64,000 nucleotides of DNA from Solirubrobacter sp. (GTDB taxonomy: Bacteria; Actinomycetota; Thermoleophilia; Solirubrobacterales; Solirubrobacteraceae). The notes beneath the pieces are model-generated. The model ran no database searches. It was not told the origin of the DNA and was given only the letters and a program-made list of their open reading frames with translations. The position numbers and the translations under genes are program-made. Below, one piece after another: positions 7,007-61,170 of the stretch. The stretch's first letter is position 1; every line of letters begins with the position of its first letter. The stretch lies in assembly GCA_035555675.1 (NCBI GenBank), contig DATMGH010000067.1, forward strand, positions 61,442 through 125,441. Reading direction: 5' to 3'.

Positions 7007-9558
7007 CGTCCCTCGCACTCCGAGGCCTGCTGACCCGCAAGCTGCGGTCGGTCCTGACCGGGTTCGCGGTCGTGATCGGCGTCGCGTTCGTGGTCGGCAC
7101 GCTCGTATTCACCGACACGATCAACGCGTCGTTCACGAACCTGTTCGAGCGCACCCAGCAGGGCGTCGACGTCGCGATCGAGGCCCACCAGGCGGTCAAG
7201 GCGGACTTCTCGGCGCCGCCGACGATGCCGTCCGCCACGCTCGACAAGGTCAAGGCCACGCCGGGCGTCGACGTCGCCGAGGGCAGCGTCAGCTCCGACG
7301 GCACGCTGCTGGACAAGCAGGGCAAGCCGATCACCTCCACCGGCCCGCCGACGCTGATCGTCTCGGAGTCGACCGAGAAGGTCTTCCAGATCCTCGACTA
7401 CGTCAGCGGCGGGCGTCCGCAGGGCGCCGACCAGGTCGCGATCGACCGCGGCACGGCGAAGAAGTACGGCTTCAAGGTCGGTGACACGGTCACCGTGACC
7501 TCGCACGAGCCGGCCAAGCAGTACAAGGTCTCCGGGATCGCGACGCTCGACGGCAAGGACAACCTGGCCGGCGCGCGGCTGGTCGTGATGACGCTGCCCG
7601 AGGCGCAGCGGATGACCGGGCACGACGGCTACGACTCGATCTCGGTCTCGACCGGCCACAACGACCCGGACCAGGTCAAGGCCGCGCTCAAGAAGGAGCT
7701 CGGTCCGGACTTCCTGGTGCGCACGGGCAAGGAGGCGGCCAAGGAGCAGGCGCAGGACCTGTCGGACGCGCTCGGCTTCATCCGCACGGCGCTGCTGGTC
7801 TTCGCCGGCGTCGCGCTGCTGGTCGGCGGCTTCTTGATCTTCAACACGTTCACGGTCACCGTCGCGCAGCGCACGAAGGAGTTCGCGCTGCTGCGCGTGC
7901 TCGGCGCGTCGCGCCGCCAGGTGCTGCGCTCGGTGCTGCTGGAGACGCTGATCGTCGGCCTGGTGGCGTCGATCCTCGGCGTGCTGGTCGGGATCGCGCT
8001 CGCGCCCGCGCTGGCGGCGATGCTCAAAGCCTTCGGGATCGACCTGGGCACGACCGGCCTGGTGATCGCGCCGGGCACGATCGTGACGGGCATCATCGTC
8101 GGCGTCCTGGCGACGATGATCTCCGGGTTCGTGCCCGCCCGGCGCGCGACCCGCGTCGAGCCGATCACCGCGATGCGCGACAGCGCCACGCCCGGCATCG
8201 GGCACCTGCGGCGGCGGCGCATCATCGGGTCGATCGCGCTCATGGGCTGCGGCCTGCTGGCGCTGTTCTACGGGCTCTTCGGCGGCATCGACTCGACGTC
8301 CGCCGCCGCGTCGCTGCTGGGCCTCGGCGCGCTGCTGATGATGTTCGGCTTCGCGTTCCTGGCGCCGCTGCTGGTGCGCCCGCTGGCGCGGGCGATCGGG
8401 GCGCCGCTGGCCCGCATGCAGGGGCTCACCGGCGTGCTGGCGCGCGAGAACGCGATCCGCCAGCCGCAGCGCACGGCGGTCACCGCCGCGGCGCTGATGG
8501 TCGGGCTCGCGCTGGTCGTGCTCGTCACCGTGTTCGCGGCCGGCATCCGGGCCTCGGTCGACAACGCGATCGACAAGCAGGTCACGGCGTCGGTGATGGT
8601 GATGGCGCAGGACGGCTTCTCGCCGGTGCCGGTCGGCGCGGCGGAGACCGTCGCGAAGGTCGACGGCGTGCGCGACGTGTCGCCGGTGCGCTTCTCGACC
8701 GGCATCCTCAAGGGCGACGGGGACGCGACGACGCCGGTCACGGGCGTCGACCCGGCGACCGTCGGCTCGGTCCTCAAGCTCGACTGGGAGAAGGGCGACG
8801 CGCAGACGCTGCGCTCGCTGACCGACCAGCAGGCGCTGGTCGACGGCAACTGGGCGAAGTCCAAGAAGGTCGGCGTGGGCGACACGCTGGACTTCACCAC
8901 GCCCGCGGGCAAGCACGTCAGCTACGAGATCGCGGGGGTCTTCAAGAACCAGGCGGGGCTGACCTCGTCGGTGATCCTGACGGGCGCGTCGCTCGCGGCC
9001 TCGTGGAACTCGACCGACCTGGCGTTCGTCGCCGCCGCCGGCGATCCCGGCGTCAAGCCGGCGGAGCTGGCCAAGCGCGCGGACGTGGCGCTGAAGGCGT
9101 TCCCGCAGACCGACGCGCTCACGATCAAGGAGTTCAAGGACAAGCAGAACCAGTCGATCAACGGCCTGCTCGGGCTCGTGTTCGCGCTGCTGTCGCTGTC
9201 GGTGATCGTGGCGCTGCTCGGGATCGTGAACACGCTGGCGCTGTCGGTGCACGAGCGCACGCGTGAGCTCGGGATGCTGCGGGCGGTCGGCATGAGCCGG
9301 CGTCAGGTGCGGCGCATGGTGCGCTCGGAGTCGGTGATCACGGCCGGGATCGGGGCGGTGCTCGGCACCGTGCTCGGGCTCGTGTTCTCGGTCATCGTCT
9401 CGCGCCCGCTGGCCGACGAGGGCTTCGTCTTCGTGCTCCCGTACGGGTGGCTGATCGTGTTCTTCATCCTGGCGGGGATCGCGGGCGTCGTGGCCGCGAT
9501 CCCGCCCGCGCGGCGGGCCGCGAAGGTCGACGTGCTGAGGGCGGTGACGACGGAGTAG
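7003..9558 (+). CDS. FtsX/MacB-family ABC permease (duplicated permease domains)
   Basis: Two FtsX-like C-terminal units (QRTKEFALLRVLGA; ERTRELGMLRAVGM); GTGA overlap with the ATPase. Confidence 0.93.
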   Translation: MTSLALRGLLTRKLRSVLTGFAVVIGVAFVVGTLVFTDTINASFTNLFERTQQGVDVAIEAHQAVKADFSAPPTMPSATLDKVKATPGVDVAEGSVSSDGTLLDKQGKPITSTGPPTLIVSESTEKVFQILDYVSGGRPQGADQVAIDRGTAKKYGFKVGDTVTVTSHEPAKQYKVSGIATLDGKDNLAGARLVVMTLPEAQRMTGHDGYDSISVSTGHNDPDQVKAALKKELGPDFLVRTGKEAAKEQAQDLSDALGFIRTALLVFAGVALLVGGFLIFNTFTVTVAQRTKEFALLRVLGASRRQVLRSVLLETLIVGLVASILGVLVGIALAPALAAMLKAFGIDLGTTGLVIAPGTIVTGIIVGVLATMISGFVPARRATRVEPITAMRDSATPGIGHLRRRRIIGSIALMGCGLLALFYGLFGGIDSTSAAASLLGLGALLMMFGFAFLAPLLVRPLARAIGAPLARMQGLTGVLARENAIRQPQRTAVTAAALMVGLALVVLVTVFAAGIRASVDNAIDKQVTASVMVMAQDGFSPVPVGAAETVAKVDGVRDVSPVRFSTGILKGDGDATTPVTGVDPATVGSVLKLDWEKGDAQTLRSLTDQQALVDGNWAKSKKVGVGDTLDFTTPAGKHVSYEIAGVFKNQAGLTSSVILTGASLAASWNSTDLAFVAAAGDPGVKPAELAKRADVALKAFPQTDALTIKEFKDKQNQSINGLLGLVFALLSLSVIVALLGIVNTLALSVHERTRELGMLRAVGMSRRQVRRMVRSESVITAGIGAVLGTVLGLVFSVIVSRPLADEGFVFVLPYGWLIVFFILAGIAGVVAAIPPARRAAKVDVLRAVTTE

Positions 9559-30948: not shown

Positions 30949-30949
30949 G

Positions 30950-30998
30950 GGGGTGTGGCCGCCAGGTCGCCTGACAGGCGACCCAGCGGCCACACCCC
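30950..30998. terminator. Long near-perfect hairpin between convergent recG and ltrA
   Basis: GGGGTGTGGCCGC-CA-GGTCGCCT-GAC-AGGCGACC-CA-GCGGCCACACCCC. Confidence 0.8.
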
Positions 30999-37996: not shown

Positions 37997-38027
37997 CGCC
38001 AGCGAACGGCGCAGGTGAGGGGGAGCG
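37997..38027 (-). repeat. Single inverted partial copy of the 71-bp array unit
   Basis: Reverse complement cgctccccctcacctgcgccgttcgctggcg matches the array junction cgcttcccttacctgcgccgttcgccggcg. Confidence 0.8.
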
Positions 38028-38077
38028 TCAGCCCTCGCCGCGCCGGATCTCTGCGTCGCGCGGGGGCGCCGGCGGGC

Positions 38078-38130
38078 GGGGGGTGCTGCGATCTACTTGC
38101 CTGAGGCGACAGGAGATTGGTGCACCCCCC
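38078..38130 (+). repeat. REP-like palindrome, degenerate copy (G6-TGCTGCGATCT-N19-AGATTGGTGCA-C6)
   Basis: The 19-nt loop matches the reverse complement of the 60101-60119 loop at 16 of 19 positions. Confidence 0.88.
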
Positions 38131-38184
38131 CGAAATGGGGGAGAGCCGGGCGACGTCCGCGCGGCCGACACGCGCGGCTCGTCG

Positions 38185-58994: not shown

Positions 58995-59612
58995 CTGTTC
59001 CGCTTCGACCGGGAGCTCGGCTTCCGGTTCGTCGCGGGCGCGGACGAGGCGGGGCGCGGATGCCTGGCGGGGCCGCTGGTCGCGGCCGCTGTGCTGTTCG
59101 ACTACGAGACGCTCTCGCTCTCGGACCGGCGCGCGCTGAGCGCGTTGAACGACTCCAAGCAGCACACGCTGGAGATGCGGGAGCTCTTGTATCCCCGCGT
59201 CCTGCGGGCGGCGGTGCGCGTCTCGGTCACGTCGCGCTGCGTGCGCGGGATCGACGAGCGGGGGCTGCACAAGACCAACCTGGCCGCGCTGTCGGACGTG
59301 CTGCGGCGCGTGGGGGAGGTCGGCGGCATCCACCTCTCCGACGGGTTCGCGGTGCCGGACTGCGGGTTCGAGCAGCGCCACGTCGTCGGCGGCGACGCGC
59401 GCTCGGCCGCGATCGCCGCCGCGTCCGTGATCGCCAAGGTGACGCGGGACCGGTTCATGCAGCGGATGGAAGCCCGCTATCCGGGGTGGGAGTTCGGCGC
59501 GCACGTCGGCTACTCGACGCCGGAGCACCGCGCCGCGATCCAGCGCCTCGGCGTCTCCCCACTGCACCGCCTCTCGTTCCAGTCCGCGGCGTACCAGCAA
59601 CTCGCGCTCTGA
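58995..59612 (+). CDS. rnhB: Ribonuclease HII (start uncertain: CTG 58995, or GTG 58869 deep inside lepB)
   Basis: GADEAGRG.LAGP, LNDSK, SDG, GDA.SAAIAAASVIAKVTRD, GYSTPEH. Confidence 0.93.
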   Translation: MFRFDRELGFRFVAGADEAGRGCLAGPLVAAAVLFDYETLSLSDRRALSALNDSKQHTLEMRELLYPRVLRAAVRVSVTSRCVRGIDERGLHKTNLAALSDVLRRVGEVGGIHLSDGFAVPDCGFEQRHVVGGDARSAAIAAASVIAKVTRDRFMQRMEARYPGWEFGAHVGYSTPEHRAAIQRLGVSPLHRLSFQSAAYQQLAL

Positions 59613-59913
59613 GGCGCGGCGCGTCGCCGCGCGGCCCTTGCGCGCCGCGCGCCCGCGCGTGTCACCGCGCCGCGTGTCGCGCCGTGCCGCCGTGCCGCGC
59701 CGCGCCGCTGGTGCCTTGCCCCGGCGCGCCGCCCCGCGGCTTTTGCGCACCGCTCGCCGCGCGGCGGTGACGCGCCGGGCCGCCGCGCCACGTGGCGCGC
59801 CGCCGGTGCCTGCCCCGTCGCACGGTCCCGCGGCCGTTGCGCACCGTTCGCCGCGCGGCTGCGCGTGTCACCGCGCCGCGTCGCGCCGGCCGCCGCGCCT
59901 CACTCCGCGCGGC

Positions 59914-59942
59914 GAGCGGTCACTTTCTGGCGCATAGCGCCA
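59914..59942 (+). repeat. Motif GAGCGGTCACTTTC-TGGCGC-N3-GCGCCA, copy 1
   Basis: Direct repeat of 60658-60686; both copies end in a small hairpin. Confidence 0.85.
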
Positions 59943-60083
59943 AGACGTCGCTCCTCGCGACGCCACGCGCCGCTCCGCCGCACTTTGCGGCCACGGCGCA
60001 TCTCTCGCCGCCGCGGCGTCTTCTCCGTCCGCCCCTCTTCACCGCGACACGGTTACGGCGGCGGTAAGGGAGGCGCCCGACAG

Positions 60084-60136
60084 GGGGGGTGCTGCGATCT
60101 ACTGTCGGCTCAGGCAAGCAGATCGCAGCACCCCCC
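60084..60136. repeat. REP-like perfect 17-bp inverted repeat with a 19-nt loop
   Basis: GGGGGGTGCTGCGATCT-ACTGTCGGCTCAGGCAAGC-AGATCGCAGCACCCCCC. Confidence 0.95.
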
Positions 60137-60201
60137 TGCAAACCCGCCGCACCGCCGAGCCGCGCGCGGCGACCGCCACCGCCGGTGCTCCCTTCGCCCG
60201 C

Positions 60202-60591
60202 GCCGTTCGCCGGCGCAACGGAGCGCTCGCGTGGAGATCGCCGCTGCCCGTGCCCGCGTTTCCCTTACCTGTGCCGTTCGCCGGCGCAGCGGAGCGCTCG
60301 CGTGGAGGTCGTCGCTGCCCGTGCCCGCGTTTCCCTTACCTGTGCCGTTCGCCGGCGCAGCGGAGCGCTTGCGCGGAGGTCGCCGCCGCCCGTACCCGCG
60401 CTTCCCTTACCTGCGCCGTTCGCCGGCGCAACGGAACGCTTGCGCGGAGGTCGCCGCCGCCCGTGCCCGTGCTTCCCTTACTTGCGTCGTTCGCCGGCGC
60501 AACGGAGCGCTTGCGCGGAGGTCGCCGCCGCCCGTGCTCGCGCTTCCCTTACTTGCGTCGTTCGCCGGCGCAACGGAGCGCTCGCGCGGAG
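60202..60591 (+). repeat. Non-coding tandem array of about 5.5 x 71-bp units, each opening with a CCGTT-CGCCGGCGC-AACGG hairpin
   Basis: Units start at 60202, 60273, 60344, 60415, 60486 and 60557; there are no unique spacers. Confidence 0.95.
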
Positions 60592-60657
60592 AGCGCCACC
60601 GCCTCGCCGGCCGCTCCGCCTCGCACCCTGTACGCCTCACGCACGGCTCGCCGCGTC

Positions 60658-60686
60658 GAGCGGTCACTTTCTGGCGCCATGCGCCG
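60658..60686 (+). repeat. Motif GAGCGGTCACTTTC-TGGCGC-N3-GCGCCG, copy 2
   Basis: Direct repeat of 59914-59942. Confidence 0.85.
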
Positions 60687-60719
60687 ATAACCGACCCCTC
60701 GCGACCGCCTCGCGAACCA

Positions 60720-60752
60720 CGGCACACTCTCGGCACAAAGTTGGCACGAACT
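60720..60752 (+). promoter_or_regulatory. Three YGGCAC direct repeats at an 11-bp period upstream of yraN-comM-dprA
   Basis: CGGCACACTCT / CGGCACAAAGT / TGGCACGAACT; TAGCGT -10 at 60792, 7 nt before the yraN ATG. Confidence 0.45.
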
Positions 60753-60804
60753 TGTAACCGCCGCGTCTAGATCCCCCGCAGTACCCCGCCATAGCGTCGC
60801 GCCC

Positions 60805-61170
60805 ATGACAGACGCCCGGCATACCGCGGGCCGGCGGGGCGAGGACCTCGCCGCCGCTCACTTCGAGCGCCTCGGGTTCGAGATCCTCGCGCGCAACCAC
60901 CGGACCCGTTTCGGTGAGCTCGACCTCGTCGCCTTCGACGGCGCGACGCTCGTCTTCGTCGAGGTCAAAACGCGTCGGTCCGGAGCCCGCGAGCCTTGGG
61001 AGAACCTCCACGACCGCAAGCAATCCAAGGTCCGGCGGATGGCGCTCTCCTGGCTCACCGAGGACACCTCGCGGCCGTTCGTCTCCCAGCTGCGGTTCGA
61101 CGGCGTCGCGATCCTCCTCGACGCCCACGGCGAGCTGGTCCGCCTCGACCACCTGGAGGCCGCGTTCTGA
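60805..61170 (+). CDS. yraN: YraN-family nuclease
   Basis: GRRGEDLA, ARNHRTRFGELDLVA, LVFVEVKTR, RFD.V.I. Confidence 0.95.
   Translation: MTDARHTAGRRGEDLAAAHFERLGFEILARNHRTRFGELDLVAFDGATLVFVEVKTRRSGAREPWENLHDRKQSKVRRMALSWLTEDTSRPFVSQLRFDGVAILLDAHGELVRLDHLEAAF

Follow-up and report, generated by a model that had tools for sequence, protein, structure and literature searches.

What is the palindrome-headed array of 71-bp units that lies between rnhB and yraN in a Solirubrobacter genome, and does it serve a function there? The window, as we call the whole stretch of DNA that was analysed, comprises 64,000 nucleotides (C67:61442-125441) of a draft genome of 5.65 Mb with 73% G+C in 216 contigs. 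A first-pass annotation, made from the letters of the window, had read the locus either as a non-autonomous mobile element that grows arrays from a palindromic head or as a multivalent RNA sponge of the CsrB/Rsm type. The results described below make it likely that the locus is a non-coding mosaic of small dispersed palindromic elements of a REP/BIME-like kind, one flank module of which has been amplified into a MIRU-like minisatellite. The locus is ordinary in kind, and the array and hairpin mosaic probably has no selected function.

The rnhB-yraN spacer is a variable mosaic of repeats

The locus is embedded in a conserved row of genes, rplS-lepB-rnhB-yraN-yifB/comM-dprA, recognized from open reading frames and family matches. 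The YraN product is 82% identical to its homologue in Solirubrobacter taibaiensis, and all close loci belong to Solirubrobacteraceae. The rnhB gene ends at 59612 and yraN starts at 60805; the 1192-bp gap between them holds the array and the hairpin together with the other repeat modules listed in Table 1.

Table 1. Features of the rnhB-yraN spacer and related elements elsewhere in the window (window coordinates).
Feature	Position	Strand	Basis
rnhB-yraN spacer, mosaic of repeat modules, non-coding	59613..60804	.	76% G+C; flanking ORFs and families; flat codon-position G+C
Tandem repeat of 94 bp in 2.1 copies, containing nested short repeats rich in CGCCG	59665..59859	.	TRF
REP-A copy 1, right arm degenerate	59903..59961	+	direct repeat D5
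Module T (ACGGCGGCGGTAAGGGAGGCGC), a half-unit in inverted orientation, complementary to GCGCTTCCCTTACCTGCGCCGT in the units	60055..60076	-	inverted repeats I3, I7, I8
G-run hairpin, subfamily A: G7-TG, 37-nt interior, CA-C6, loop TGTCGGCTCAGGCAAG	60084..60136	+	
Stretch ending in a degenerate first unit (…GCGCGCGGCGACCGCCACCGCCGGTGCTCCCTTCGCCC)	60137..60199	+	register of family D1; alignment with the priA-upstream copy
71-bp minisatellite, 5.7 units	60200..60603	+	TRF and repeat analysis
REP-A copy 2	60647..60705	+	repeat analysis
Ancestral yraN upstream region, sole part of the spacer alignable with congeners	60752..60804	+	spacer BLAST
Subfamily-B hairpin wedged between the stops of convergent genes, TGA/hairpin/TA	30949..30998	.	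pattern search and gene context
Second composite of the window, flanked by convergent genes: hairpin at 38078-38131 and one unit core at 37997-38028	37997..38131	-	

Across the genus, the ends of rnhB and yraN are about 85% identical and the rest of the spacer between them is unalignable. A BLAST search for homology of the spacer in 13 congeners found none except in a terminal stretch, the alignments starting 17-75 nt ahead of the yraN ATG. The spacer of these 13 congeners ranges from 76 bp to 2.2 kb and measures 76-83 bp in three genomes. The rnhB-yraN spacer is highly variable across the genus and has been repeatedly filled by repeats; the ancestral spacer was probably short, and different lineages probably filled it independently. 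The spacer of one congener, G002 (G002:C1:443600-445500), carries an unrelated array with 19 copies of a 31-bp unit.

The array consists of non-coding 71-bp units

Tandem Repeats Finder (TRF) assigns to the array a period of 71, 5.7 copies, 92% matches, 0% indels and a score of 626, which agrees with the first-pass count of about 5.5 units of exactly 71 bp. Two GGAG motifs, a CCCTTAC motif and the small hairpin GCGCCG-TTCGC-CGGCGC are present in each unit, the last overlapping the CCGTT/AACGG stem that had been read there before. The earlier observation that adjacent units differ by transitions shared between neighbours was confirmed in all 14 variable columns, 10 of them C-to-T changes when the plus strand is read. 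The variants form a gradient along the array (33T/46T/60T in units 0-1, 29T in units 2-4, 4T in units 4-5). Transitions and other changes stand at 14:0 within the array vs 35:12 between two paralogous loci; the somewhat more extreme ratio in the array (p ~0.015) is a point against the mosaic reading. The transition-only pattern fits young, neutral mutation of the GC-to-AT type in a very G+C-rich genome.

Three long open reading frames cross the array. Their G+C content is flat by codon position (0.74/0.72/0.74 vs 0.74/0.45/0.91 in yraN) and they match no NCBIfam family, and we therefore consider them spurious. A protein-coding repeat was ruled out for these two reasons and because the period is not a multiple of 3, so that the array is non-coding, as initially proposed. 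It is not a CRISPR array either, again in accord with the first reading, because the units abut without spacers.

The genome contains 335 tandem-repeat loci with a period of at least 30, together making up 1% of its DNA. The present array, with a unit copy number taken from one short-read-type assembly in 216 contigs, adds a further minisatellite to a genome already rich in repeats and is of little importance by itself, though it might serve as a strain-typing marker. The largest minisatellite of the genome (G000 C184:91646-93738) has 27.5 copies of a 74-bp unit with 64% match.

The palindrome belongs to a family of hairpins of fixed length

The arms of the palindrome (60084-60103 and 60117-60136) are 20 nt long, 95% complementary with one mismatch, and separated by 13 nt; the perfect 17-bp inverted repeat described earlier corresponds to the outer 17 bp of these arms. 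The predicted stability of the hairpin is -44 kcal/mol. BLAST, fuzzy search and a covariance model recovered 12 copies of it in the genome, which constitute subfamily A and have a conserved loop, TGTCGSCTCAGGCAAG, and variable stems. Subfamily A is part of a superfamily of G-run hairpins, GGGGTG-N37-CACCCC, with 69 copies in the genome. The length is fixed: other spacings from 27 to 49 occur in only 0-7 copies each, and a reversed-pattern control gave ~0. At least five subfamilies can be told apart by their interiors, which share no sequence relationship but are all self-complementary. GTAG/CTAC is present only within subfamily A, and the invariant part of the superfamily is GGGGTG…CACCCC at the foot.

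The interiors covary. In 60 distinct copies of the superfamily, 83.7% of cells are paired vs 67.8% in shuffles, both partners change in 16 of the 22 pairs, and covariation scores 0.408 vs 0.155 with none of 500 shuffles as high, all these figures being inflated by kinship within subfamilies; slid controls are only 36-48% paired. Within subfamily A, 88% of cells pair, a level reached by 36 of 500 shuffles. Covariation is thus strong across the superfamily but weak for subfamily A alone. Comparison of G-U with A-C mismatches revealed no strand bias of the subfamily-A hairpin either way.

When the pattern was tightened to GGGGGTG-N37-CACCCCC, 33 of 101 genomes of Solirubrobacteraceae, representing 20 of 51 genera, still contained it, and the interiors differ between genomes. 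Counts per genome reach 47, 28 and 17, and the reversed-pattern control in the same 101 genomes yielded 0-1. As judged by eye, copies from different genomes are built alike: the foot is rich in G+C, an A/T-rich triplet stands about 7 nt in, and beyond it come an inner stem and a loop of ~5 nt.

The genome- and genus-wide BLASTn search suggested earlier produced further copies in the genome itself, but the particular hairpin and units studied here were absent from the 40 relatives searched. The covariance model returned weak generic matches only in 120 genomes of the family, and the loop 17-mer had ~117 matches in 596 Gb of genomes, all without flanking arms and at chance level. There was no match in plasmid and phage collections and none for the unit core in the JGI metagenomes, where the hairpin pattern had 4 matches, all from another assembly of the same organism. 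A second public assembly of this organism (JGI Ga0182736, L194-L197) is more contiguous, is 100% identical over 3-10 kb, and joins C59 and C72. A search of the literature on repeats in Solirubrobacter and Thermoleophilia found nothing relevant. The hairpin family keeps strictly to one length and preserves its ends in many related genera, and it seems not to have been described so far.

Hairpin and units recur together at four loci

A unit profile search of the genome identified the present locus (C67:121.6 kb), a locus at C67:58.1 kb, and only a weak match on C3. The C67:58 kb locus lies upstream of priA and comprises an array of 2.7 units of 65/71 bp that stops 30 nt short of the GTG. Over ~400 aligned bases this locus and the present one are 88% identical, and the two share the order REP-A, spacer, inverted module T, hairpin, ~60 nt, units. 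The composite on C3 (C3:7214-7606) contains a hairpin at 7214-7266 with an inverted unit upstream and, downstream, a repeat with a period of 122 bp in 2.5 copies, that is, five alternating 68-/54-bp units representing a diverged form of the unit. The inverted module T occupies the matching place at C67:58021-58042 and on C21. The inverted one-unit copy that had been reported at 38.0 kb of the window exists as well (Table 1).

Palindrome and homologous units therefore co-occur at four of the 12 subfamily-A copies (the present locus, C67:58.0 kb, C3 and 38.0 kb of the window), so that the search for further copies linking the two, proposed at the outset, was successful. The composite has a recurring layout, with the inverted module T 7 nt upstream of the hairpin and a direct module T plus the GCGCCG/CGGCGC hairpin ~60 nt downstream. 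Counting any tandem repeat with a period of at least 30 within 300 bp, an array accompanies six of the 12 subfamily-A copies vs two of the 57 copies of other subfamilies (Fisher p = 2e-4). The two array-bearing copies upstream of priA and of yraN-comM-dprA are co-oriented with these genes.

Hairpins are concentrated near stop codons, and two of them are missing from orthologous sites

Gene contexts were assigned with a crude gene caller of our own, which uses G+C by codon position and covers 74% of the genome. By this measure, the neighbouring genes are convergent at 28 of the 69 copies, tandem at 23 and divergent at 3; a further 8 copies lie inside gene calls, 6 of them at over-extended 5' ends, and 7 at contig edges. 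Compared with a background of 439 convergent, 1540 tandem and 520 divergent spacers, hairpins are enriched between convergent genes (p = 1e-8 by count, 9e-5 by length). Many copies are 1-20 nt from stop codons, and some touch stops on one or both sides, e.g., TGA/GGGGG…CCCC/TA.

At the site corresponding to the hairpin at C120:2424, the convergent genes of seven congeners abut or overlap at their stops and no hairpin of the family is present. The subfamily-B hairpin of Table 1 is missing from the orthologous site in three congeners (G002, G004 and G008). Because hairpins are missing at both compared orthologous sites, we consider them lineage-specific insertions, not conserved terminators; their distribution and the empty sites point to mobility. 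No consistent target-site duplication was seen at the two compared loci or, by eye, at ~10 copies, and no parent insertion sequence, in the form of a matching pair of ends from these subfamilies 120-6000 bp apart, was found in the genome. For these two reasons a MITE was ruled out; the element itself is the inverted repeat. At the C120 orthologous site, congener G004 (L180, G004:C8:108610-108840) carries a different small hairpin (CCGGGGGG…CCCCCGG), and the other six congeners have none.

Other modules of the mosaic and candidate mobilizers

REP-A, with the consensus GCGAGTGGTCACTTTCTGGCGC-nnn-GCGCCGGAACGTGACCACTCGC, is a 55-nt palindrome with ~170 strand-hits genome-wide and is far more abundant than the G-run hairpin. 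It is often clustered with 140-330-bp spacing and located at contig ends (e.g., G000 C4:53401/53544/53694 and C93:18-578), and it probably breaks the assembly. Module T (CCTCCCTCACC.GCGCCGTTCGCCGGC), the start of the 71-bp unit, is dispersed at no fewer than 25 further sites. The spread of module T, the REP-A copies on either side of the block and the large number of minisatellites in the genome all make the array less exceptional. Another module of the mosaic, the motif GTGGCGCGTTGCCGCTC, has 72 sites genome-wide (≤2 mismatches), often just upstream of REP-A.

Two RAYT-like genes are encoded in the genome (PF01797 above the cut-off; NF047646 at 68 bits, below its 80-bit cut-off). Neither G-run hairpins nor REP-A were found on the contigs of these two genes. 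Among 101 genomes, a RAYT-like gene is present in 21 and at least three hairpins in ~24, with an overlap of 6 vs ~5 expected. This lack of adjacency and co-occurrence led us to reject RAYT as the mobilizer of the G-run hairpins. A separate palindrome, CCTAAAGGGGCC-W-GGCCCCTTTAGG, has 31 copies in the genome, usually with outer TAAA/TTTAGG repeats, and one of them (C104:3204; L143:1262-1300) is 67 nt from a RAYT-like gene. This palindrome is probably the REP of the adjacent gene, and the two would form a true REP-RAYT pair in an actinobacterium.

A more far-reaching proposal, which we consider unlikely but worth stating, is that the G-run hairpins constitute an undescribed mobile palindromic class of Solirubrobacteraceae. 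Such elements would have a length set by a molecular ruler, would be moved by a non-RAYT enzyme and would land at or next to the stops of convergent genes, with the arrays beside subfamily A arising as a by-product of element replication or fork stalling. If that were true, the hairpin "head" really would seed the array.

Alternative explanations

We weighed the mosaic reading against four others, two of which ascribe a function to the locus. It could be a co-opted cis-regulatory composite, an attenuator, insulator or leader controlling read-through from rnhB into yraN-comM-dprA and, in the paralogue, likewise priA, such that replication and recombination genes share a control region. REP/BIME elements attenuate transcription and stabilize upstream mRNA, the hairpin is predicted to be very stable, and two of the four composites are positioned suitably. 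However, the remaining two have convergent genes on either side or sit at a 3' end, a consensus scan restricted to sigma-70-type and U-tailed sites detected nothing resembling a promoter or terminator, and congeners run the same gene pair with 76-83-bp spacers or unrelated fillers. Co-option of REPs for attenuation has been mentioned (PMC3337134), yet for the present locus we regard it as quite unlikely. A structured non-coding RNA with repeated binding sites, either a CsrA/Rsm-type sponge acting through GGA or an RNA with six single-stranded CCCUUAC(C/U)U tracts resembling anti-Shine-Dalgarno sequences, is most unlikely. CsrA would be expected to be uncommon in Actinomycetota. A check for its presence found two CsrA-family genes in the genome (PF02599, 89.8 and 71.1 bits; G000 C176:9189-9347 and C65:11398-11553), a point in favour of such an RNA. 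The fold of the plus strand has a z-score of -3.9 vs shuffles, but this comes largely from the big hairpin. Changes in the unit stems all result in G-U on the plus strand, as a structured plus-strand RNA would predict, but this outcome is expected without selection because most changes (10/14) are C to T on that strand. CCCUUAC(C/U)U is the only regularly unpaired tract and is predicted to be so in every unit. Against this, all 12 GGA motifs have their GG in predicted stems, not loops (unpaired probability ~0), and the GGA density is only 1.8 times the background, owing to two motifs per unit. Rfam gave 0 matches in the whole window at the gathering threshold and, in E-value mode over 59550-60850, generic miRNA-like hairpins only (E > 0.3); the scan revealed neither promoter nor terminator of the types covered at the array, and the units are confined to the present genome. 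The sponge suggested in the first-pass annotation is not borne out by these results.

The other two alternatives deny any link between the components or the reality of the array. Were the array a plain VNTR unrelated to the hairpin family, its adjacency to the palindrome would be coincidental. The abundance of minisatellites in this genome, the near-absence of arrays beside the 57 hairpins of other subfamilies and the occurrence of module T, the core of the unit, at many sites without a hairpin are all compatible with this. The order and spacing of inverted module T, hairpin, ~60 nt and units nevertheless recur at four loci, and arrays are significantly associated with subfamily A, which makes coincidence very unlikely. 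An assembly artefact, in which copy number or regularity of the array would stem from the repeat-rich draft, could be suspected from the 216 contigs, the many contig ends bearing repeat elements and the length of the array (404 bp), which exceeds a typical short read. The 14 differences between units are, however, arranged in an ordered gradient, unlike what a collapsed or misjoined assembly would give, and four other hairpin loci match the assembly Ga0182736 at 100% identity. The chance of an artefact is therefore close to negligible.

A model for the origin of the locus

According to the mosaic reading, the hairpin elements enter gaps poor in genes, in most cases immediately after a stop codon, and spread as subfamilies within the genome. 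Subfamily A travels with flanking sequence, comprising the inverted module T upstream and the direct module T plus the small hairpin downstream. In the rnhB-yraN spacer, the downstream piece of ~71 bp would then have been duplicated head to tail in a stepwise manner, with replication slippage or unequal exchange as the probable route; stalling of the replication fork at the stable hairpin next to it may have helped. The units would afterwards have gained GC-to-AT-type transitions. If the locus influenced rnhB read-through into yraN-comM-dprA or the stability of mRNA, this would be a side effect.

Of the mobile element initially envisaged, the dispersed, insertion-type family and the link between palindrome and units at four loci have stood up. 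Most hairpins, on the other hand, have no units, the unit core is dispersed separately, and there is no sign that the head grows the array; active growth by the head is not needed, since ordinary slippage or unequal exchange explains the array.

The hairpin family is a more useful result than the array, as it offers dozens of copies per genome, an exact length, and conserved ends around freely covarying interiors, in at least 20 genera of a little-studied family of soil actinobacteria, with copies set close against stop codons. It provides a clean system for studying what moves REP-like elements without a linked RAYT, and it is also suited to testing hairpins as terminators or mRNA stabilizers in very G+C-rich bacteria that lack U-tailed terminators. 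In practical terms, such elements interrupt assemblies made from short reads and add to the number of false ORFs called in these genomes.

Comparison with known systems

The array resembles the regulatory RNAs CsrB, RsmY and RsmZ in having a repeated unit with GGA motifs in a genome with CsrA genes. It differs from them in that its GGA motifs are predicted to be paired, sigma-70-type and U-tailed signals were not found in the scan, the array is not conserved, and it is very G+C-rich. SMAG elements of Stenotrophomonas and MITEs such as Correia/NEMIS are small palindromic repeats with species-specific insertions. The G-run hairpins share with them this species specificity and their location a few bases from stop codons and between convergent genes. 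Unlike these elements, the G-run hairpin is only ~55 bp long, with no target-site duplication seen and no parent insertion sequence with matching ends.

The MIRU-VNTR loci of Mycobacterium, reportedly described by Supply et al., are said to be 46-101-bp intergenic tandem repeats. Their defining trait is a copy number that varies from strain to strain, often together with small ORFs coupled to the flanking genes. The present array is likewise actinobacterial and intergenic in an operon-like row, with a unit of ~50-100 bp in a few head-to-tail copies that occurs at several loci, but it has no sequence similarity to MIRUs and no small coupled ORFs were seen in it.

Closest in character are the REP/BIME elements of Enterobacteria and the REPINs of Pseudomonas (Bertels & Rainey; PMC3116915, PMC3337134), which are, like the G-run hairpins, short extragenic hairpin palindromes present in tens to hundreds per genome. 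In both cases there are subfamilies within a genome, the interior varies while the hairpin stays, and the 3' ends of genes are preferred. The G-run hairpins differ in having a conserved G-run plus TG at the foot in place of a GT[AG]G/GTAG-type head, in their strictly fixed length (N37), and in that they neither flank RAYT-like genes nor correlate with them across 101 genomes. As in BIMEs, they form ordered mosaics with other short motifs and tandem amplification, the single spacer studied here combining two REP-A copies, the inverted module T, the hairpin, 5.7 units of 71 bp and 2.1 copies of the 94-bp repeat. Tandem arrangements of REP type reach about five units, without an accepted explanation (PMC3337134); in the rnhB-yraN spacer, it is the flank that is tandemly repeated, not the hairpin itself.
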